A stretch of 35,026 nucleotides of DNA from positions 1-35,026 of the IMG/VR virus record IMGVR_UViG_2698536657_000017; one strand, written 5' to 3'. Both the position numbers and the translations under genes were made by a program. This DNA comes from a virus. Lineage: Duplodnaviria; Heunggongvirae; Uroviricota; Caudoviricetes. The notes below the pieces were generated by a model. It searched no databases and was not told the origin of the DNA. It saw only the letters and a program-made list of their open reading frames with translations. Shown one piece after another: positions 9,934-26,377 of the stretch (position 1 is the stretch's first letter; each line of letters opens with the position of its first letter).

Positions 9934-11592
9934 ATGCTGAATATCAAGCCGAATTTTGCTCAGGAACGTGCGCTGAATATGTTGCGTCATGACTGGAAAA
10001 CATATCAGTCCTTCATGATGTACATGCCTACAGGGAGTGGTAAAACCGGCCTGGCGGCGTTCATCACTGCTGGTCTGGTAAGCCGTGGCATGCGCGTTCT
10101 GTTTGTCGTTCCTTATACCATTTTGATCAACCAGACAGCACAGCGCTTTGTTCAGTACGGGCTTTCCGGGGATGAAATCAGCTTTATCTGGCGTGATCAT
10201 CCCAATAACGACCCGTCACGACTGATTCAGATTGCCAGTGCGGATACGCTGATTCGCCGTGATTTTCCTCAGAATATCGACCTGCTGATTATTGATGAAG
10301 CTCATCTCCGTAAGCGCCGCATCCTCACGGAAATCGAACGACTGGTTGCAGAGGGAAATGTGAAGGTGATTGGGTTGTCCGGTACACCCTTTTCATCGTT
10401 CCTGGGGCGTTATTACCAGCGTCTTCTCAAGCCGACCACTATAGGGGAACTGATCCAGCGTGGCGAACTGAGCAATTACGAATTTTATGCGCCCACGAAA
10501 CCGGATCTGGAAGGTGTAAAAACGAAAGTCTCAATGGAGTACGGCAGGGATTACGACGAATCACAACTGGCAGAGATTATGTGCGGCGCGGATCTGGTTG
10601 GCGATATTGTCGATAACTGGCTGTGTAACGGAAGGGATTTACCGACAGTGGCGTTCTGCGTCAATAAAACGCATGCCAGCTTCGTGACCATGCAGTTCAA
10701 CAAAGCCGGAATTAACGCAGAGGTGATGGTTGCTGAAACGCCACATGATGAGCGTCAGTTAATGATCAGTCGTTTTGAAACGGGAGCGACGAAAATCATT
10801 GTCAGCGTTGGCGTTCTGGTGGCGGGATTTGACAGTGATGTCCGGTGCATCATTTACGCACGCCCGACAAAATCAGAGATTCGCTGGCTTCAGGCGATTG
10901 GGAGAGGATTGCGTACAGCGCCAGGCAAGGAGTCATGCCTGATTTTCGACCATTCCGGTACGGTTCATCGCCTGGGATTTCCTGAAAATATTGAGTATGA
11001 CGAACTGCCCGGCAAAAACGACGGGATGCAGGTGTCATCATCACGTGGTAACGAAATTCGGGAAGAAAAACTGCCGAAAGAATGTCCGGGGTGTCATTTC
11101 ATGAAACCGGCAGGTGTTTATGTCTGTCCGAAATGCGGATTTAAACCGCTGGCTGGTGAGGATGTGAACACAGATACCCGCCGCAATATCAGGAAACTCA
11201 GCAAGGACGAAAAAATTTACACCAAAAGCGACAAACAGGCCTGGTGGAGTCAGATCAAATTCTATCAGCGTCAGCGTGCCTCTCTGGGGCGACCGGTCAG
11301 CGATGGATGGTGCGCTCACACTTTCCGGGAGAAGTTCGGCGAATGGCCTGACGGGCTGAGCAGTTTTCCGATGGAAATCACCCCGGAGGTCAGTAATTAC
11401 ATCAGACACAAATTCATCCGGTTTGCCAGAGGGCGTAGCCGGGCAGAGAAGATGACGGAAAAATCCCCCGAAGCGCTTTCTCTGTCCCTGCTTCATGGTG
11501 TCCGGTCTGGGGTGCCGGAAGGCAGTGAGTCGTGGCAGATCATGCAGGCAAAGCAACAACTTCAGAAAAACAGAAACAGTCTGAGTCAGTAA
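9934..11592 (+). CDS. SF2 DEAD/DEAH-box replicative helicase (552 aa) with a C-terminal CxxC...CxxC zinc ribbon
   Basis: Walker A MPTGSGKT, motif II IIDEAH, motif III SGTP, motif VI QAIGRGLR. Zinc ribbon CPGCHFMKPAGVYVCPKCG. GGAG RBS. Confidence 0.9.
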   Translation: MLNIKPNFAQERALNMLRHDWKTYQSFMMYMPTGSGKTGLAAFITAGLVSRGMRVLFVVPYTILINQTAQRFVQYGLSGDEISFIWRDHPNNDPSRLIQIASADTLIRRDFPQNIDLLIIDEAHLRKRRILTEIERLVAEGNVKVIGLSGTPFSSFLGRYYQRLLKPTTIGELIQRGELSNYEFYAPTKPDLEGVKTKVSMEYGRDYDESQLAEIMCGADLVGDIVDNWLCNGRDLPTVAFCVNKTHASFVTMQFNKAGINAEVMVAETPHDERQLMISRFETGATKIIVSVGVLVAGFDSDVRCIIYARPTKSEIRWLQAIGRGLRTAPGKESCLIFDHSGTVHRLGFPENIEYDELPGKNDGMQVSSSRGNEIREEKLPKECPGCHFMKPAGVYVCPKCGFKPLAGEDVNTDTRRNIRKLSKDEKIYTKSDKQAWWSQIKFYQRQRASLGRPVSDGWCAHTFREKFGEWPDGLSSFPMEITPEVSNYIRHKFIRFARGRSRAEKMTEKSPEALSLSLLHGVRSGVPEGSESWQIMQAKQQLQKNRNSLSQ

Positions 11593-13953: not shown

Positions 13954-14019
13954 GACTGCGGGTGCTTGAGGGTGTCTGCCTCGGGCATGCTGCCGTAAGG
14001 CAGACGGAGAAAAGCCCCA

Positions 14020-14080
14020 GTTAACATTACGCGTCCTGCAAGACGCTTAACATTAATCTGAGGCCAATTTCATGCTGAAC
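14020..14080 (-). ncRNA. sok: Sok-like antisense RNA (boundaries approximate)
   Basis: Minus-strand promoter TTGCCT-17-TAACCT (-35 at 14110-14115, -10 at 14087-14092) points into the hok leader. The transcript would be complementary to the upstream in-frame ATG (14072) region. It contains the hairpin GCGTC-N6-GACGC (14031-14046). Confidence 0.4.
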
Positions 14081-14128
14081 ACATGTAGGTTAGCCTCTTA
14101 CGTGCCGAAAGGCAAGGAGAAGCAGGCT

Positions 14129-14284
14129 ATGAAGCAGCAAAAGGCGATGTTAATCGCCCTGATCGTCATCTGTTTAACCGTCATTCTGACGGTACTGGTA
14201 GCGAGGAAAGACCTCTGCGATGTACGAATCCGAACCGGCCAGACGGAGGTCGCTGTCTTCGTAGACTACGAATCTGAGAAGTAA
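14129..14284 (+). CDS. hok: Hok/Gef-family type I toxin, HokD/RelF-like (51 aa)
   Basis: MKQQKAMLIALIVICLTVILTVLVARKDLCDVRIRTGQTEVAVFVDYESEK is near-identical in pattern to RelF/HokD as I remember it. AAGGAG RBS. The upstream leader resembles the hok mRNA fold-back elements. An in-frame upstream ATG at 14072 occupies the mok position. Confidence 0.9.
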   Translation: MKQQKAMLIALIVICLTVILTVLVARKDLCDVRIRTGQTEVAVFVDYESEK

Positions 14285-14458
14285 GAGACCTGGCGGGGGA
14301 GTAATCTCCCGCCCCCTCTGATGTGTCAGGCATCCTCAACGCACCCGTACTTTAGTTGTCATATGCTCCGCAAAATGCAGGTTGTCGTTGCAACCCGTGC
14401 GGTAATTTTTTGTGTGCGAGTGCTCAAAAAACGTTGATTTTCATAAAAGGACGATTTT

Positions 14459-16543
14459 ATGCTGCCAGACCAGCGACCAGCGACCAGCGACCGTAAATCA
14501 AGAAAGTCTGTAAAATCTGTTGAACCAGACATTGCCGACCGGGCTAACAACTGGCTCAAATCTTATGGACTTGATTACAAACTGGAGCAGGCACCACTTA
14601 ACAACGAGATCGATAACGCACTGGATGCTTATTTTTCGAAAAATGGCGGCACAGGCGGTAATCGTCCCGACGTAAAACTCCTTGTTCAGGACAAATACGG
14701 CAAGCAGTATCCCGTTCTCATCGAGTATAAAGGCTACAAGGACAGGCTTATCAGACTTGGCAGCAACGGTATTATTGAGAACAAAGATGCCAGAAAAGAA
14801 TGGAATTTTAAAAATATTAATGGATACGCGGTGAATGGCGCAGTCCATTATGCCAACGCACTTCTTCAGTTCACCAATTACCCTGATATTATTGCTATTG
14901 GTATGACCGGCTGGCGCGATGATGGTACAGGCGAACTGCATCATGAAATCGGCGTGTGGTACGTATCAAAGAATAATTTAGGAGCCGGGCAGAAGGTTGG
15001 TGAATTCACCGACTTATCGTTCCTTGCTGACAAAAATGTTGATGGATTTCTCAACAAGATAAAGCTGCTTAATCTTCCTCCCGAAGAACTGGAAAAAATC
15101 AAGGCCAGCAAAGAGGAAGAGATAGACACGCGACTTTCCCGTCTGAATAACGATATTTACCAGAATGAAAAGGGGCTTGGTGAAAGCGATCGTGTTTACC
15201 TTGTTGTGGCTACCGTTATTGCAACGTTGGGGATTCCGGGAAAGTTAGCACCGCTGGATAAAAAAGAACTGACCTCTTCAACGGAGGAGGACTTGCGTGA
15301 TGGTGATATTATTTTCAGGAAAATAAGGAATTTTTTAAGGCTGAAAGCTGTTCCTGAAACAAAAAGAGAAATGATTTTGCGCTCGTTGCAAAATACGCTG
15401 TGGACTGAAAACATTAACAAACCAGTCAACGGTGAAAGCCAGTTAAAGCGCGTGTTTGTTAAAGTTGTTGATGATCTTGGGGAGTATTACAAAATCGGAC
15501 TGACCACTGATTTTACGGGCAAACTGTTTAATGAGATGTATCGCTGGCTTGGATTTACGCAGGACAAACTCAATGACGTCGTTCTGACACCACCTTATGT
15601 TGCCACATTGCTGGCACGACTCGCCAGAGTAAACAAAGATTCCTATGTGTGGGATTTTGCTACAGGTTCTGCGGGATTGCTTGTGGCTGCAATGAATGAA
15701 ATGCTCATTGACGCCAGAGAAAATATTCACTCACCGAATGAACTACAACTTAAGGAAGCGCAAATCAAGGCTGAACAGCTTCTTGGCCTTGAGGTGTTAT
15801 CCAGTATTTATATGCTGGCCATCCTGAATATGATTTTGATGGGGGATGGTAGCTCGAATATCCTCAATAAAGACTCGCTAGCCGATTTTGACGGCAAGTA
15901 TGGATTTGGGAAAACAGGAGAAAAATTCCCTGCGGACGCATTTATTCTCAATCCTCCGTATTCAGCTAAAGGTAACGGCATGATTTTCGTGCAGAAGGCG
16001 CTGTCGATGATGGATAAAGGCTATGCTGCAGTGATTATCCAGAGTTCAGCCGGCACAGGAAAGGCTACGGAGTACAACAAAAAAATACTCAAGGAAAATA
16101 CCTTGCTGGCAAGCATCAAAATGCCTGCGGATCTGTTTATTGGTAAATCAAGCGTTCAGACGTACATTTACGTTTTTCAGGTAAAAATTCCGCATAACGC
16201 GAAACAGGCTGTTAAGTTTATCGACTTTTCCAATGACGGCTATGCTCGCTCTAATCGCAAAAAGGCAAGAAACAATCTTGTTGATGCCGATCGTGCAAAA
16301 GAGCGTTATCAGGAGGTTGTGGATCTGGTTCACTTCGGGAAAGGTTGCCTTAATATCTTTACGGAGGATGAATATTTTGAGGGAACAATCGATCCTGATA
16401 GTGGTGAGGACTGGAATCAGACCAGGCCAGTAGATGCTAGGCCAACGCTGGATGATTTCAAAAAGACGGTAGGTGATTACCTTGCATGGGAGGTCTCGCA
16501 ATTACTGAAAAAACAAGGTGAAAACAATTTTGCGGGAAAGTAA
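14459..16543 (+). CDS. Fused PD-ExK nuclease plus gamma-class N6-adenine DNA methyltransferase, BcgI-A-like RM subunit (694 aa)
   Basis: N-terminal D71-X17-E89-x-K91 (NRPDVKLLV...PVLIEYKG, nt 14666-14731). MTase motif I DFATGSAG (15653-15676) precedes motif IV NPPY (15950-15961). AAGGA RBS. It is followed by an HsdS-like gene, and no HsdR-like gene is present. Confidence 0.85.
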   Translation: MLPDQRPATSDRKSRKSVKSVEPDIADRANNWLKSYGLDYKLEQAPLNNEIDNALDAYFSKNGGTGGNRPDVKLLVQDKYGKQYPVLIEYKGYKDRLIRLGSNGIIENKDARKEWNFKNINGYAVNGAVHYANALLQFTNYPDIIAIGMTGWRDDGTGELHHEIGVWYVSKNNLGAGQKVGEFTDLSFLADKNVDGFLNKIKLLNLPPEELEKIKASKEEEIDTRLSRLNNDIYQNEKGLGESDRVYLVVATVIATLGIPGKLAPLDKKELTSSTEEDLRDGDIIFRKIRNFLRLKAVPETKREMILRSLQNTLWTENINKPVNGESQLKRVFVKVVDDLGEYYKIGLTTDFTGKLFNEMYRWLGFTQDKLNDVVLTPPYVATLLARLARVNKDSYVWDFATGSAGLLVAAMNEMLIDARENIHSPNELQLKEAQIKAEQLLGLEVLSSIYMLAILNMILMGDGSSNILNKDSLADFDGKYGFGKTGEKFPADAFILNPPYSAKGNGMIFVQKALSMMDKGYAAVIIQSSAGTGKATEYNKKILKENTLLASIKMPADLFIGKSSVQTYIYVFQVKIPHNAKQAVKFIDFSNDGYARSNRKKARNNLVDADRAKERYQEVVDLVHFGKGCLNIFTEDEYFEGTIDPDSGEDWNQTRPVDARPTLDDFKKTVGDYLAWEVSQLLKKQGENNFAGK
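14468..14492 (+). repeat. Heptanucleotide tandem repeat (GACCAGC) x3.6 inside codons 4-12 of the RM gene
   Basis: Perfect period-7 identity across 14468-14492 (gaccagc gaccagc gaccagc gacc). The unit length is not a multiple of 3. Confidence 0.9.
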
Positions 16544-16602
16544 ATTCCCCGCTCAGCGATAAATTAAGAAGCGTTGAGTGGGGAGAGTTCAGGATTGGCG
16601 AT

Positions 16603-17139
16603 TTGTTCTATGTGAGCACAGGCTCGCTTATCTCCTCAGGAAGATTAAAACCAGGCAAAATTAAACGTGTTTCAGCAAAGAGCGATCAAAACGGTATCAT
16701 CGGAGAGTTTGATACCGAGTTTATGGATGATGCAAGGCATTATGAAAATTTTATAAGCGTTAATTTTTTTGGAGATGCTTTTTATCATCCTTATTGTGCC
16801 AGCGTAGAAATGAAGGTGCATGTTCTTACATTAAAATCAAGTAAGTCCGACTTTAATGCAAAGCGCGGACTGTATGTTGCCAGTATGATTAATAAAGCTT
16901 TAAAGGGGCGTTTTAATTATGGTCAACAGTTATCGAGTTCCAAACTCAGAGATGGAGAATATTTCATCTCATTACCAGTGAAAAATAATGAAATTGACTG
17001 GTTTTTTATGGATAATTATATAGAAGAGCTGGAAGCGGCCCATATAGAAGAGCTGGAAGCTTACTTGCTGGTTAGCGGACTCGCGGACTCGCGGACTCGC
17101 GGACTCGCGGACTCGCGGACTCGCGGACTCGCGGACTGA
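16603..17139 (+). CDS. HsdS-like specificity subunit, N-terminal half (TRD1 plus central helix), terminated inside or after an 8-mer repeat tract
   Basis: The frame is open from 16522. It has the conserved S-subunit N-terminal motif VEWGEFRIGDLF, a TRD-like body, and a coiled-coil FFMDNYIEELEAAHIEELEAYL. It then reads through the repeat as GLADSRTRGLADSRTRGLAD and stops at TGA 17137. The only start codon after the motif region is TTG at 16603. Confidence 0.7.
   Translation: MFYVSTGSLISSGRLKPGKIKRVSAKSDQNGIIGEFDTEFMDDARHYENFISVNFFGDAFYHPYCASVEMKVHVLTLKSSKSDFNAKRGLYVASMINKALKGRFNYGQQLSSSKLRDGEYFISLPVKNNEIDWFFMDNYIEELEAAHIEELEAYLLVSGLADSRTRGLADSRTRGLAD
17018..17060 (+). repeat. In-frame 24-bp tandem duplication (ATATAGAAGAGCTGGAAGC core, x1.8) in the S central helix
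   Basis: Copies at 17018-17036 and 17042-17060 are identical and have a 24-nt period. They encode IEELEAAH/IEELEAYL. Confidence 0.85.
17075..17137 (+). repeat. Octanucleotide tandem repeat (GCGGACTC) x7.9 between the two halves of the S gene
   Basis: There are 7 perfect units at 17075-17130 plus 7 nt of an eighth. The unit length is not a multiple of 3. The flanking ORFs are in different frames (pos mod 3 = 1 upstream, 0 downstream). Confidence 0.97.
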
Positions 17140-17201
17140 TAAGCTATGAGCTTACACCGCAGGAATATAACGCGATTGAGCTATTAAATAGCAATAATCT
17201 T

Positions 17202-17723
17202 ATGTGGGGCACTTATAACCTCAAAAAGTTATTTGGCCCCGCAATAAGAGGTAAGCGTCTGAAAAACGCAGATCGTATTCCCGGATCCTTGCCTTTTGTT
17301 ACTGCGGGTGAAGGCAATGAAGGTATTTCTGCATTTATCAGTAATGATGTTGTTGTATTCCCTGAAAATACCATTACGATAGATATGTTTGGCTCCGCAA
17401 AATACAGAAATTATGAGTATGGTGCAGATGACCATGTGGCAGTTGTTCATACAGAATTCTTTGACAGAAATGCCGTTATTTTCATAACAGCATCAATTCA
17501 TAAGTCTTCTTGTACCGGAAAGTTCAACTACGGGAGAAATTTCTATGCAAAAGATGCCGACGAGTTAATGGTATCTTTGCCGTCAAAAGATAATAACCCT
17601 GATTATTCTTTCATGGAGACGCTAATTTTAGCAGTACATAAACTGGTCATCAAAGATGTTGTCCAGTACACTGATAAAAAGCTGGTAGCGTACAGGCAGA
17701 TTACATCTGAGAAGGTCGTTTAG
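17202..17723 (+). CDS. HsdS-like specificity subunit, C-terminal half (TRD2 plus C-terminal helix)
   Basis: MWGTYNLKKLF parallels WGEFRIGDLF of TRD1. Further parallels are MFGSAKYRNYEYG vs FFGDAFYHPYCAS, and VSLPSKDNNPDYSFMETLI vs ISLPVKNNEIDWFFMDNYI. The frame is open upstream through the repeat tract (...LISYELTPQEYNAIELLNSNNLM). Confidence 0.7.
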   Translation: MWGTYNLKKLFGPAIRGKRLKNADRIPGSLPFVTAGEGNEGISAFISNDVVVFPENTITIDMFGSAKYRNYEYGADDHVAVVHTEFFDRNAVIFITASIHKSSCTGKFNYGRNFYAKDADELMVSLPSKDNNPDYSFMETLILAVHKLVIKDVVQYTDKKLVAYRQITSEKVV

Positions 17724-17845
17724 TGCAAATCCCCACCTGACAGGGTGGGGAATGGTCAGGTTATCGTGCCCTGATGCAGAAAAACAGTTTACAATCGTAA
17801 AAATCATCATATCATGACAAAAGTGGTTACATTGCCACGCAGCCG

Positions 17846-17870
17846 AACCCGCCGATGCGCGGGTTTTTTG
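17846..17870 (+). terminator. Intrinsic terminator
   Basis: AACCCGC-cgat-GCGGGTT followed by a T6 run. Confidence 0.7.
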
Positions 17871-18050
17871 TATCCGGAATCCTGTGAGTTATACGGAAAG
17901 TACACAGAAAGGAAGGTGCGACCGCAATTAATAACAAAATCTTAAAAATTGCATATGGCACTATTAGTTTTCTAAATATTGTATATTTTGAGTATTGCAG
18001 GATATCCCCTGTAACGAAGTTTGCGTAACAGCATTTTACTCTACGAGTTT

Positions 18051-18298: not shown

Positions 18299-18485
18299 TA
18301 TCGACCTCTTTCAGGAATTGTGTAACTGAGATGACAGATTCAGATTTCGTCAATAAATGCAAAATGTCAATCCTGAGATCATGGTGAGCTATCTGGCGGT
18401 TTTTTATATCTGTTTAACGGGGGATGTTACATACCTCACAATTCAGTCAGTTGAAGGTTGTCTGCCCGGATGAGAATTTGTTAGA

Positions 18486-18663
18486 AAATTTCTGCATGGT
18501 GAATCCCCCTGAGCGGAGGGGCATATCAGCGACAGGTGGTTGGTTATATCCCTTATCTGGTGCGGGTTCAGGTGCTGATACTGAACTCACCGGGAGGCAC
18601 CCGGCACCATGCAATGAACGGTACATAGCGCTACTCTTCAGCCCCTCTCCGGAGGGGCTTTTT
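18486..18663 (+). ncRNA. Candidate structured RNA / short terminated transcript, unit 1 (ends approximate)
   Basis: Promoter-like TTGAAG (18451-18456) with TGaGAATTT downstream. Closing helix TGCATGGTG (18493-18501) pairs with CACCATGCA (18605-18613). Hairpins CCCCT-N6-AGGGG and CCGGG-aggca-CCCGG. Terminator AGCCCCTC-tccg-GAGGGGCT-TTTT (18640-18663). Confidence 0.45.
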
Positions 18664-18752
18664 AATGAGGGGAAGACACTGGGCAGTGAAATGTTAAATC
18701 ACTCACAATTCAGGTAGTTGACGGTTGTCTGCTTGGCTGAGAATTTGTAAAA

Positions 18753-18939
18753 AAAATCCTGCATGGTGAATCCCCCTGTGCGGAGGGGCGACTGGTGAAT
18801 GGTATGATCTCTTTGATGATCGTAAGCGAGAATACGCGGGTTTGGTGGCACCAGGCCGAACTCACCGGGAGGCACCCGGCACCATGCAGTATACAGAGAT
18901 TAGGCATATACCAAGGCCCCTCATAGCAGGGGCCTTTTT
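18753..18939 (+). ncRNA. Candidate structured RNA / short terminated transcript, unit 2 (ends approximate)
   Basis: Promoter-like TTGACG with TGaGAATTT. Perfect 10-bp closing helix CTGCATGGTG (18759-18768) pairs with CACCATGCAG (18880-18889). It has the same two hairpins as unit 1. It has its own terminator AGGCCCCT-catagc-AGGGGCCT-TTTT (18914-18939). Confidence 0.45.
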
Positions 18940-19157
18940 ACATGCAAAAAAAGCCGCCCCGGGAAGAGCGGTTGGCAAGAAGAAAAGCAATATGAACAAT
19001 TAATTAACGATGGGAATAATACCTTAGAGTAATCACCTTGCGCAACTGTAAGGGCATATTTCATCTTTGCGGGCTGTTTTTCCGGGTGACTTCTGTGTTT
19101 CCGGAGGCCAGCCTGTACCTTCTCTGACTCAGAACATTATCCCGGCCGGGAGGATTC

Positions 19158-23883: not shown

Positions 23884-24690
23884 ATGGCAAAGCTGGACTG
23901 GAAAAAGCTGGAGCAGGCATTCCGACGCGAACATGCCGAAACGGGAATAACATTACTGGACTGGTGCCGGAAGAAAAAGATTAATTACAACACCGCCAGA
24001 ACCCGTATAAAAATGGGCAAAATCGATCATGAAATTGATCATAAAACCGATCATGAAATCGATCATGACATCTCAGATGAAGAACCCAGCAATGACGCGT
24101 GTTCCGACGATGAAAAATGCGCAAAAAACTCTGAAAAAAACTGCGCAAATTCGGCAGAAACGAAACGGATTCGTGGTTCCCGACTTTTACCTCCTTCAAA
24201 CGCTTTTTCTCAGCGAAACACCCACGCCGTAAGACACCGTGGATATGCGAAGTATCTTGAGGCAGATAACCTCATGGATGATGCGTCCGACATGGTGCTG
24301 TTCGATGAACTGGTGTTCACCCGGGCCCGCGCACTTTCAGTAACTAAGGCACTTAAAGGGATGTTCGCCGACCTGGAAGAGGCAACTGACGTGGAAACCC
24401 GCGTTGCTCTTTACGACAAAATACTCAAAGCTGAACAGGCCCTTGACCGGAATATTGCCCGTATCGAGTCAATTGAACGCTCATTGCTGACGCTGGACGT
24501 CCTGGCTGAGACAGCACCAAAACTTCGTGCTGACCGGGAAAGAATCAACGCCGCCAGAGATAAACTCAGAGCGGAAACCGATATTCTGACCAGCCAGCGC
24601 CGGGGTGTTATTACGCCAGTCAGTGACATCGTGTCATCGCTGCATGAAATGAGTAATTCGGGGAGACTGGATGACATTCCGGAAGAATAA
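23884..24690 (+). CDS. terS: Terminase small subunit (268 aa)
   Basis: N-terminal HTH-like segment (GITLLDWCRKKKINYNTARTRIKMG). It lies immediately upstream of, and overlaps, the large terminase gene. The C-terminal half is coiled-coil. Confidence 0.7.
   Translation: MAKLDWKKLEQAFRREHAETGITLLDWCRKKKINYNTARTRIKMGKIDHEIDHKTDHEIDHDISDEEPSNDACSDDEKCAKNSEKNCANSAETKRIRGSRLLPPSNAFSQRNTHAVRHRGYAKYLEADNLMDDASDMVLFDELVFTRARALSVTKALKGMFADLEEATDVETRVALYDKILKAEQALDRNIARIESIERSLLTLDVLAETAPKLRADRERINAARDKLRAETDILTSQRRGVITPVSDIVSSLHEMSNSGRLDDIPEE
24022..24069 (+). repeat. Four tandem 12-bp units, each containing GATC (ATCGATCATGAA-like)
   Basis: Units at 24022, 24034, 24046 and 24058, with GATC at 24025, 24037, 24049 and 24061 (exact 12-bp phasing). 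They are codon-aligned and encode IDHE-IDHK-TDHE-IDHD. Confidence 0.9.
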
Positions 24691-26377
24691 AACGCGATGT
24701 GATGAACCTGCAGAAATGACTGAGACCGAACAACGTCTGTTCATTATGACAAAACTGAGCAATCCCTGGTGGCGCCTCAATCATCTCTACAAAATACAGA
24801 ACGAAAAAGGTGAACTGGTCACCTTCAGAATGCGACCGGCGCAACGTCAGTTGTTTCGTAACATGCATAATAAAAACATTATCCTGAAAGCGCGCCAGCT
24901 GGGATTTTCCACAGCCATTGATATTTATCTTCTCGACCAGGCATTATTCATTCCGCATCTCAAATGCGGGATCGTCGCTCAGGATAAACAGGCTGCCAGT
25001 GAAATTTTCCGCACAAAAATTGCTGTACCGTTTGATCATCTCCCTGACTGGCTGAGAGCCTCATTCACCATCGTTGAACGTCGTAGCGGTGCCTGCGGTG
25101 GCTATATCCTGTTTGGTCACGGCTCGAGTATTCAGGTGGCAACCTCATTTCGCTCAGGTACGGTGCAGCGCCTGCATATCTCAGAGCACGGCAAAATTTG
25201 CGCGAAATATCCGGCTAAGGCGAAAGAGCTGCGAACCGGTACGCTTAATGCCGTCTCTGATGAATGCATTATTTTTGATGAATCCACGGCTGAAGGCGTG
25301 GGTGGTGATTTTTACGAGATGAGTAACCGTGCACAGGAGAGCACTGCATCAGGCTTATTGCTGACGGCACAGGATTATAAATTCCATTTTTACGCATGGT
25401 GGCAGGATCCTAAATACAGCGCCAGAGTGCCTGAAAGCGGGCTGAAGCTGTCACGGGAAAAAATGACGTATTTTTCTGCGGTTGAGAAGGCAATGAACAT
25501 CACGCTTACCGATGAGCAGAAGCAGTGGTACATCAGTAAGGAAACTGAACAGCGTGAGGAAATGAAGCAGGAGTTTCCCTCAACGCCACAGGAGGCGTTT
25601 CTGACGTCCGGACGACGTGTGTTCAGTGCCGAAAGTACATTGCAGGCAGAATCATTCTGTTCGCCACCGATGATTGTTTATGACATTGAACCTGTTACAG
25701 GAGCGAAGACTAAAGCTCAGTCTCTGCGTGAAGGAAATAAAAACGAGTTGCAGCGGACGCTGATGAATTATCTGCTGGTATGGGAACTGCCGGATCCGGA
25801 TGAAGAGTATGTTTGTGGGGCAGATACTGCCGAAGGGCTGGAGCACGGAGACCGCTCATCGCTGGATGTTGTCAAACGCAGTAATGGCGAGCAGGTGGCT
25901 CACTGGTTCGGGCATCTCGATGCTGAACTTTTTGCTCATCTCATTTCGCAGGTCTGTCGTATGTATAACAACGCGTTTGTGGGGCCGGAGCGTAATAATC
26001 ACGGACATGCAGTTATCCTGAAACTCCGGGAACTCTATCCGACACGTTATATCTACAACGAACAGCATCTTGACCAGGCATATGACGACGATACGCCCCG
26101 CCTTGGCTGGCTGACAACCCGTCAGAGCAAACCTGTTCTGACCGAAGGAATGAAAACGCTCCTGAATAATGGAATATCAGGGATCCGCTGGTCAGGCACA
26201 TTATCGGAAATGAACACCTACGTTTATGACGCGAAAGGCTCCATGAATGCACAGGAAGGCTGCTTTGATGATCAGCTCATGAGCTACATGATTGCCCAGG
26301 AGATGCGCGCCAGAATGCCGGTGAGGGTAAAACAGAAAACGGATAAACGCAGAACCACACACTGGATGGCACACTGA
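24671..26377 (+). CDS. terL: Terminase large subunit (568 aa; alternative start at 24716)
   Basis: Size and position fit. ATPase-like N-terminal half (ILKARQLGFST Walker-A-like; IIFDEST Walker-B-like) and a nuclease-like C-terminal half. An in-frame ATG at 24716 avoids the overlap with terS. Confidence 0.88.
   Translation: MTFRKNKTRCDEPAEMTETEQRLFIMTKLSNPWWRLNHLYKIQNEKGELVTFRMRPAQRQLFRNMHNKNIILKARQLGFSTAIDIYLLDQALFIPHLKCGIVAQDKQAASEIFRTKIAVPFDHLPDWLRASFTIVERRSGACGGYILFGHGSSIQVATSFRSGTVQRLHISEHGKICAKYPAKAKELRTGTLNAVSDECIIFDESTAEGVGGDFYEMSNRAQESTASGLLLTAQDYKFHFYAWWQDPKYSARVPESGLKLSREKMTYFSAVEKAMNITLTDEQKQWYISKETEQREEMKQEFPSTPQEAFLTSGRRVFSAESTLQAESFCSPPMIVYDIEPVTGAKTKAQSLREGNKNELQRTLMNYLLVWELPDPDEEYVCGADTAEGLEHGDRSSLDVVKRSNGEQVAHWFGHLDAELFAHLISQVCRMYNNAFVGPERNNHGHAVILKLRELYPTRYIYNEQHLDQAYDDDTPRLGWLTTRQSKPVLTEGMKTLLNNGISGIRWSGTLSEMNTYVYDAKGSMNAQEGCFDDQLMSYMIAQEMRARMPVRVKQKTDKRRTTHWMAH

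Follow-up and report, generated by a model that had tools for sequence, protein, structure and literature searches.

We examined a tandem repeat that interrupts the specificity (S) gene of a restriction-modification system in a stretch of viral DNA of 35,026 nucleotides (nt), IMG/VR record IMGVR_UViG_2698536657_000017 (Caudoviricetes), which we refer to in its whole length as the window. The system comprises an enzyme gene, here termed RM (restriction-modification), and the S gene, whose two halves each encode a target recognition domain (TRD1 and TRD2) and a conserved helical region (CR1 and CR2). The repeat, an octamer, stands between the two halves. The features that carry the finding are the following.

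16540-17139, plus strand: S reading frame in the window, with the N-terminal motif VNSPLSDKLRSVEWGEF, TRD1, CR1, a repeat-encoded tail and the TGA at 17137-17139 (translation; Pfam Methylase_S 6e-10)
17075-17137, plus strand: octanucleotide repeat (GCGGACTC)7 + GCGGACT, the element under study (Tandem Repeats Finder and sequence)
17139-17723, plus strand: TRD2 and the C-terminal conserved helix (CR2), 194 codons, ending at TAG 17721-17723; the open reading frame (ORF) is intact and unjoined to TRD1 in the window (translation)

Tandem Repeats Finder placed the tract at 17075-17137 with period 8, 7.9 copies, 100% matches, a score of 126 and the consensus GCGGACTC, the top-scoring tandem repeat of the whole window. 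In its surroundings the sequence reads GGTTA(GCGGACTC)7GCGGACTGATAAGCTATGAGC, and the site lies after TRD1 and the central helix CR1 and before TRD2. The upstream S frame (frame 1) passes through the tract and ends ...RGLAD at the TGA 17137-17139, which gives a half-S product of about 199 amino acids (aa). The Pfam Methylase_S match stops 6 residues short of the tract, and the truncated product retains TRD1 and CR1, as expected of a half-S of the NgoAV, EcoDXXI or BsaXI TRD1-CR1 type. The downstream frame (frame 0) is open from 17076, directly after the TAG at 17073-17075; it translates as ...RTRGLISYELTPQEYNAIELLNSNNLMWGTYNL... and continues for 194 codons past the tract to the TAG at 17721-17723. 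An earlier note on this DNA had described a split of the S gene at 17075-17137 by 7.9 copies of an octamer, and both Tandem Repeats Finder and the frame translations confirm it.

When read in frame, the octamer encodes ADSRTRGL per three units, and the S gene is fused at unit counts divisible by 3; with the seven units of the window, the second half is out of frame. The frame arithmetic of the earlier note, according to which the loss of one unit or the gain of two would fuse the halves, is right, and relatives with 6 or 9 units have a fused S. On the coding strand none of the frames of the tract contains a stop codon, and both wrong frames stop right after it, 0-4 codons past the tract, with the ends ...GLAD and ...SRTDKL. 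Three states had been claimed in total. A third frame with a stop of its own does exist (TGA 17147-17149, ...TDKL), but the two truncated products are near-identical. Only their last few residues set them apart, so that the functional states effectively reduce to two, and to judge from the translations the two truncated forms would for practical purposes be one TRD1-CR1 half-S.

Structurally, an AlphaFold2 model of a fused public protein (P0270; mean predicted local distance difference test score, pLDDT, of 87) contains TRD1, the CR1 helix (residues 136-168), TRD2 and the CR2 helix (residues 343-379), and its repeat-encoded residues 176-186 form a non-helical linker with pLDDT < 50. The placement of the tract at the junction of central helix and TRD2, which had been read from the letters, is borne out by this model, where the repeat peptide appears as a linker after CR1 and before TRD2. 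An insertion of variable length at this linker is plausible on the same model. At the level of the protein, repeat-free alleles read ...EELEAYLIAAGLSDYQLTEKDY..., compared with ...EELEAYLLVSGL(ADSRTRGL)kISYELTPQEY... in the tract-bearing fused alleles.

Octamer copy number among related prophages

The earlier note had set a comparison of copy number among homologous prophages as a test. We counted the full octamer units in the DNA of every contig that carries the tract in its S gene (11 independent contigs).

L002: 4 octamer units
L006: 6 octamer units
L007: 6 octamer units
L100/L116: 6 octamer units
Window: 7 octamer units
L008: 8 octamer units
L098/L118: 9 octamer units
L004: 16 octamer units
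L005: 16 octamer units
L001: 23 octamer units
L091/L115: 26 octamer units

Public proteins carried 3, 3, 4, 6, 6, 6, 8, 9, 10, 14 and 20 units. The tract is variable, not invariant, with an overall range of 3 to 26 units (4-26 in the DNA loci, 3-20 in the proteins). The window's own S allele, with the same TRD1 and the same TRD2, exists in public data in both states: fused in P0269 (n = 3, 365 aa) and P0270 (n = 6, 381 aa), and truncated in P0287 (n = 4) and P0283 (n = 8). Related alleles among the public proteins have 3, 6, 6, 9, 10, 14 and 20 units, and RefSeq annotates fused S proteins of 375 and 381 aa in L006 and L007.

The closest pairs are the most direct comparison. L001 and L007, both from an Okinawa series of bovine isolates, match without exception over 6,326 flanking nt and carry 23 versus 6 octamers and 23 versus 30 copies of a second repeat, a heptamer in the RM gene that is described below. 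L005 and L006 differ by 1 mismatch in their flanks and carry 16 versus 6 octamers. Because near-identical flanks go together with different counts, the octamer count shifts much faster than point mutation. The locus has the marks of a contingency locus, namely a unit that is not a multiple of 3 inside an ORF, and in-phase and out-of-phase alleles among near-identical strains. With a polymorphic tract and with fused and split states of one and the same allele, the slipped-strand phase variation proposed by the earlier note is supported comparatively. The phase-variation reading is supported by these sequence comparisons, from which we infer that switching takes place within a clone.

Could the tract, or the differences in its length, be an artefact of assembly or sequencing? 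Many proteins of both genes from draft genomes (the P0122 and P0001 clusters) are 'partial' at contig ends; therefore, short-read assemblies break at both tracts, and the loci are under-represented or truncated in drafts. L004 also has an implausible 66-nt poly-C run inside its heptamer tract (2026-2091), a suspected assembly artefact. Nevertheless, 11 independent contigs, which different laboratories obtained on different platforms, share the GCGGACTC unit at this position, and their counts lie as much as 22 units (176 nt) apart; a feature that recurs in this way has not arisen by chance. The in-phase counts agree with annotated full-length proteins. We consider an artefact extremely improbable.

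A further alternative holds that the two halves are separate genes, with TRD2-CR2 translated from the ATG at 17202, a heterodimeric S and the repeat as an intergenic spacer. Such an arrangement is how RefSeq treats the downstream half, which it annotates as a 173-aa protein from the equivalent ATG. It is difficult to reconcile with the natural fused alleles of the same gene, with the residues between tract and ATG (LISYELTPQEYNAIELLNSNNL), which are conserved in a diverged copy, and with the lack of any Shine-Dalgarno (SD)-like sequence before ATG 17202. The earlier note had also asked whether homologues would encode the halves as separately initiated genes without a repeat. What we found was the opposite: repeat-free homologues encode a single continuous two-TRD S protein, and this holds for all distant homologues. 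We therefore give two separate genes only a slim chance, well below that of a tract that switches one gene between two forms.

Homologues at about 70% identity from other phyla carry neither the octamer nor the heptamer tract, and the repeats are therefore a feature of the enterobacterial prophage lineage. A scan of metagenome contigs for (GCGGACTC)n returned 24 matches, every one of them in unrelated GC-rich DNA and outside any S gene. The phage GenBank collection gave a single match, PhiR12_3, which belongs to the repeat-free TRD2 class.

Enzyme class, half-S state and selection

The meaning of a half-S depends on the enzyme that it serves, for which two further features are needed.

14459-16543, plus strand: RM gene, 694 aa, in frame (ON) in the window (ORF; Pfam; PADLOC)
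14468-14492, plus strand: heptanucleotide repeat (GACCAGC) x3.6, 9 nt after the RM ATG (Tandem Repeats Finder)

The translated RM protein has an N-terminal nuclease region of the PD-(D/E)XK type (RPD...IEYK) fused to a gamma-class N6-adenine methyltransferase (DFATGSAG, NPPY). Pfam found N6_Mtase (5e-21) and a weak VRR_NUC match at residues 32-98, while PADLOC found REase_MTase_IIG (7e-234, profile positions 3-717 of 721) and a second Type IIG model of 637 positions (7e-45). The fused S of relatives matches the PADLOC model Specificity_II ('Type II specificity subunit', 8e-28), and fused forms have two Methylase_S stretches, two TRDs and two conserved helices. Neither in the window nor in relatives is there an HsdR-like gene next to the RM-S locus; the sole superfamily 2 helicase ORF of the window (9934-11592, 552 aa) belongs to the replication module, beside the primase. 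A Type I HsdS system, as the earlier note had implied, is rejected because HsdR is absent at the locus and the methylase carries the nuclease domain. By its PADLOC and Pfam assignments, the system is instead a BcgI/BsaXI-like Type IIB/IIG system of an RM subunit and an S subunit. With BcgI and BsaXI it shares the nuclease-methyltransferase fusion and an S of the order TRD1-CR1-TRD2-CR2 (PADLOC, Pfam). It differs in that S has no start of its own and apparently depends on a -1 frameshift (see below), and in that the repeat variation here is natural, whereas the half-S of BsaXI was engineered. The RM protein is thereby a BcgI-alpha-like subunit; one source names an RM homologue 'Restriction enzyme subunit alpha'. 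A PDB sequence search with the RM protein gave no match at E < 0.01, and NCBIfam gave no match for S and only sub-threshold HsdM/MAD2 matches for RM. A methylome preprint on O111 concerns a different, BREX-like Type IIG enzyme.

We propose that gain or loss of an 8-nt unit, probably through slipped-strand mispairing or unequal recombination, would put TRD2-CR2 in or out of frame with TRD1-CR1. In E. coli, MutS-dependent repair does not generally extend to loops as large as 7-8 nt. A count divisible by 3 would then give a two-TRD S with a flexible (ADSRTRGL)k linker, and any other count a TRD1-CR1 half-S; the window, with n = 7, would be in the half-S state, with RM predicted to be ON. If the half-S behaves like BsaXI TRD1-CR1 and truncated Type I HsdS, two copies of it would associate, and the enzyme would act at a symmetric site in place of an asymmetric bipartite one, such that the tract would toggle specificity rather than abolish function. 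TRD1-CR1 of BsaXI (Type IIB), combined with the RM subunit, has a new, symmetric cleavage site, AC N5 GT in place of AC N5 CTCC, and TRD2-CR2 alone was not expressible (PMC9159934). Because of these precedents, a toggle between asymmetric and palindromic specificity is most likely the function of the tract.

In Type I systems, the same half-S logic is accepted for NgoAV and proposed for 7.8% of the hsdS genes in REBASE (PMC7383803). As described there, such Type I hsdS genes with simple sequence repeats (SSRs), for example poly-G in N. gonorrhoeae and GCAA[n] in Haemophilus parasuis and Pseudomonas aeruginosa, resemble the present one in having a repeat that is not a multiple of 3 between TRD1 and TRD2, which yields a full or a truncated S, the latter thought to dimerise and to change specificity. 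In contrast to them, we find a Type IIB/IIG fusion and not M2R2S, an octamer of up to 26 copies, an E. coli lambdoid prophage of the Shiga toxin (Stx) type as carrier, a second tract in the enzyme gene, and an S that is apparently coupled by frameshift. An SSR between TRDs that gives full or half S is known for Type I systems; it is new in a Type IIB/IIG system on E. coli Stx-type prophages.

The second tract lies at the start of the RM gene, which reads AAGGAYGATTTT-ATG-CTG-CCA-(GACCAGC)n, in the conserved context AAGGAYGATTTTATGCTGCCA(GACCAGC)n. The heptamer encodes DQRPATS and keeps RM in frame only at counts divisible by 3, as in the window (n = 3). Loci with this tract are L001-L009, L090-L112 and L143-L147; counts in relatives are 3, 9, 16, 19, 23, 30, 31, 34, 64, 67, 76, 80, 83, 99 and about 93-100, and RM is in frame in 8 of the 23 complete loci. 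Here, too, near-identical strains differ (83 in G6/7 versus 99 in G8; 83 in UCPROB-002 versus 76 in UCPROB-001), with 0-1 mismatches in 5.6 kb of flanks. Because the family profile aligns only from residue 17, the heptamer encodes a lineage-specific N-terminal extension. The 5' end of a coding region is the classical position for an ON/OFF contingency tract, and to judge from frame and counts the heptamer looks like a second contingency tract, an ON/OFF translational switch of RM. Two annotations at this tract were set aside: an upstream GTG start that RefSeq gives for one out-of-phase RM gene, a longest-ORF choice that we judge to be no real alternative start, and genes for a 'YXWGXW repeat-containing protein' or hypothetical proteins opposite long heptamers (L003, L004, L005, L006 and L143-L146 in RefSeq), which are most likely spurious ORFs made by the repeat. 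The closest parallel to the (GACCAGC)n tract is neuO of the E. coli K1 prophage CUS-3, likewise prophage cargo, with a variable 5' heptanucleotide 'poly-psi' repeat, slipped-strand switching and a role in phage resistance (PMC9659370). neuO differs in encoding a capsule O-acetyltransferase, in its repeat unit and prophage type, and in having no second tract and no specificity switching.

Is the octamer tract a maintained switch, or a sign of decay? The TRD2-CR2 frame (about 195 codons) is intact in 11 of 11 tract-bearing loci, whatever their phase. Between the window and L116, which is about 17% diverged from it at the DNA level and still has the tract, the ratio of nonsynonymous to synonymous substitution rates (dN/dS) of the TRD2 half is 0.137 at a dS of 0.76. 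Since both carry the tract, the TRD2 half has been under purifying selection throughout the tract's life. Such selection would also be compatible with TRD2-CR2 as a gene of its own, against which speaks the failure of BsaXI TRD2-CR2 to be expressed alone (PMC9159934). The octamer tract occurs with at least three TRD combinations. A comparison of 16494-17074 with L115 and L003 shows the window's own S gene to be a mosaic: the 3' end of RM and TRD1 match the repeat-free 'class 2', and the tract and TRD2 match 'class 1'. This points to a shuffling of TRDs by recombination in the conserved helix region.

These data bear on a rival in which the repeat is a neutrally unstable microsatellite in a cargo gene under relaxed selection, its states useless and its truncated form a plain knock-out. 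The in-phase fraction is near the random one third for both tracts, RM is out of frame in most relatives, and one relative (strain 2015C-3121, L004 4342-5039) has an IS1 inserted between the RM and S genes, all of which would fit neutrality. It is at odds with an intact TRD2 at every locus under the constraint given above, and with the GCGGACTC unit having been kept at the linker between the domains in lineages that are about 17% apart and differ in their TRDs. The lack of stops within the tract on the coding strand, with stops immediately after it in both wrong frames, likewise argues for a switch. Both tracts also sit where functional contingency tracts sit elsewhere, at the 5' end of an enzyme gene and in the gap between TRDs (PMC7383803), and the TRD1-CR1 half-S is active in BsaXI (PMC9159934). 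Neutral instability is thus unlikely in our judgment, although it deserves more credit than an artefact or a pair of genes.

Several points weigh against a selected switch of specificity. The evidence for switching is a comparison of assemblies, in some of which long tracts can be miscounted, and the poly-C run of L004 is a suspected case of faulty assembly. S is fused in 4 of 11 DNA loci and RM in frame in 8 of 23, in both cases about one third, the expectation without selection on phase; because of this, the phase frequencies alone give no proof of adaptive use. Further, once an active nuclease-methylase changed its specificity, chromosomal sites that it had not methylated should lie exposed, and how the cell would survive this is unexplained. 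On balance, we put a probability of roughly 75% on the octamer tract being a hypermutable contingency locus in the S gene that toggles between full and half-S specificity.

Proposed frameshift cassette and helix repeat

The junction of RM and S and the remainder of the S gene hold further elements.

16534-16543, plus strand: slippery heptamer G_GGA_AAG (16534-16540, RM frame), then the RM stop TAA (16541-16543) (sequence; homologue conservation)
16545-16585, plus strand: 13-bp stem-loop 4-5 nt 3' of the heptamer, a probable stimulator (RNAalifold consensus of 40 diverse loci)
17020-17061, plus strand: 24-nt repeat encoding IEELEAAH in the CR1 helix, about 2 copies (sequence comparison)
17845-17876, plus strand: terminator-like hairpin with a T run, 3' of the S gene (consensus scan only)

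The RM gene ends GC-G_GGA_AAG-TAA, and the S frame is -1 relative to it. In the S frame there is no ATG, GTG or TTG before the TTG at 16603, which follows the conserved motif ...LSDKLRSVEWGEF (WGEF). RefSeq annotates the starts of such S genes inconsistently, as ATT, TTG or GTG or as a pseudogene. For comparison we used 91 distant loci with an RM about 70% identical (L010-L114 range), from Clostridia, Bacteroidota, Proteobacteria, Campylobacterota, Cyanobacteria, Spirochaetota and others. A heptamer G_GGA_AAR with a directly following stop and S in the -1 frame was present in 82 of the 91, and 6 more had a heptamer nearby. In the 82, S starts after the slip site with GK[IVM]...LN.KL..V.WGE; the Gly codon of the heptamer is GGA in all 82, versus 31% usage elsewhere in these genes, and the base before this GGA is G in all 82, drawn from 7 different codons. 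In 43 of the 82, the stretch from the closest preceding S-frame stop up to the conserved Trp lacks a canonical start, and in relatives the Methylase_S domain starts 14-20 residues past the slip site, upstream of the first canonical start.

The flanking elements, with which the putative cassette extends over 16515-16585 in the window, are conserved as well. Of 80 loci, 57 have an SD-like core at a distance of 6-18 nt upstream, versus 5.6% of control windows; in the window this element is only a weak AAGGTG. In the hairpin, 95.2% of cells are paired across the 40 loci, versus 37-49% with slid partners; compensatory changes occur at 5 of its pairs, and none of 500 shuffles came up to the observed values. 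The window hairpin has a minimum free energy of -23.3 kcal/mol, and Rfam has no family at its site. The 'class 1' variant of E. coli, although different in sequence, keeps a heptamer (A_AAA_AAG) and a hairpin. In E. coli, G_GGA_AAG is listed as one of the heptamers highly prone to frameshifting (PMC5009743).

That S is instead initiated directly after the heptamer is unlikely: 77 of 82 loci have ATA or GTA as the next codon and 5 have ATG, and such a start would leave G_GGA_AAR and the hairpin unexplained. Judged by this conservation, translation of S apparently depends on a programmed -1 frameshift, with RM and an RM-S fusion as its products, predicted for the window to be a 694-aa RM and an 893-aa fusion of RM with half-S. 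An output of RM plus RM-S suits an (RM)2S enzyme stoichiometry. Natural in-frame RM-S fusions occur among the homologues, several of them without a slippery site, and an engineered M-S fusion of EcoKI has been described (PMC3510504). The arrangement recalls dnaX and lambda G/GT in its X_XXY_YYZ heptamer (G_GGA_AAG in lambda G/GT; A_AAA_AAG in dnaX and one E. coli variant here), in the elements on either side of it, an SD-like one some 10 nt before and a hairpin a few nt after, and in two products at a fixed ratio; it differs in that a restriction-modification enzyme and its fusion to a specificity subunit would be made, and in that the 0-frame stop abuts the heptamer. Our literature searches found no direct report of a frameshift in RM/S genes.

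The third repeat in the S gene is in frame. IEELEAAH is present in 2 copies in the window, in 3 in L002, L006, L090, P0270 and P0275, and in 4 in L091, P0272 and P0274. In EcoR124I/EcoR124II, a repeat in the central region changes the length of the recognition-site spacer. The likeness lies in an in-frame repeat of variable copy number within the central conserved helix of S; the unit is 4 aa there and 8 aa here. By this analogy, the 24-nt repeat may tune the length of the recognition-site spacer.

Prophage context and significance

The window encodes an integrase, a replication helicase, a primase, the Q antiterminator, mok/hok with sok, the RM-S pair, two copies of the STnc100 small RNA (sRNA), a NanS-like esterase, a holin, an endolysin, and a P22-like portal and capsid. 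The RM-S system is carried as cargo by a lambdoid E. coli prophage, with the Q antiterminator/hok genes on one side and the lysis genes on the other. About 30 of 5,426 complete E. coli genomes carry the locus, which lies just downstream of Q and hok in every E. coli genome whose neighbourhood was inspected. Relatives have the Q antiterminator and Hok upstream and tRNAs, stx2 or a SASA esterase downstream, and in some of them stx2 follows the RM-S locus directly.

Around the locus in the window, an ORF for a hok/mok-type toxin with the sok antitoxin RNA (Rfam, 108 bits) occupies 13960-14284, directly upstream of the RM gene, and a GC-rich hairpin lies at about 14296-14325, between hok/mok and RM. 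Downstream, the two STnc100 copies stand in tandem at 18465-18670 and 18732-18945 (Rfam, 153 and 200 bits), in the place of tRNA-Ile/Arg/Arg genes in related prophages; ARAGORN found no tRNA in the whole window. Further on, imperfect 12-nt tandem repeats (24020-24072, 4.4 copies; 24113-24149, 3.1 copies) lie inside the ORF 23884-24690, which is just upstream of the ORF 24671-26377 and the portal gene.

In host-adapted pathogens such as Neisseria, Haemophilus, Helicobacter and Mycoplasma, restriction-modification systems characteristically vary in phase through repeats, which makes for epigenetically distinct subpopulations. E. coli, to our knowledge, is generally regarded as poor in repeat-driven phase-variable loci. 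The earlier note had called such repeats unusual in Enterobacteriaceae and in prophage cargo. As to prophages, neuO on CUS-3 is a precedent; as to restriction systems of E. coli, the statement stands insofar as we found no report. Literature searches gave no direct report of a phase-variable restriction-modification system in E. coli prophages, and those with the repeat units as text gave only primer-like chance matches. The combination of an octamer of up to 26 copies, a heptamer of up to about 100 copies and a conserved, predicted frameshift cassette is new.

Taken as one, the elements could form a device of three layers, in which the frameshift would fix the ratio of enzyme to fusion, the heptamer would turn the enzyme ON or OFF and the octamer would set full or half S, with the 24-nt repeat maybe tuning the spacer. 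Stx-type lysogens would thereby have a heritable, though reversible, mix of specificities and methylomes, as bet-hedging against superinfecting phages and possibly as a phasevarion. This wider picture is tentative, and we regard it as somewhat less probable than its failure in one or another part.

What the locus presents is a mobile phase-variable restriction-modification system of lambdoid prophages, in some strains immediately before stx2, with very long tracts of 7- and 8-nt units whose lengths change more rapidly than point mutations arise. Since assemblies of short reads break at these tracts, loci of this kind can readily escape notice. Were the frameshift cassette confirmed, a large and widespread gene family would join the short list of bacterial programmed frameshifts, and the odd annotations of S (ATT and TTG starts; truncated genes or pseudogenes) would be explained. 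If the states differ in specificity, lysogens would have shifting barriers to the entry of phages and plasmids together with shifting methylomes, which could in part explain differences between otherwise identical outbreak isolates, and the tracts would be usable as natural typing markers.

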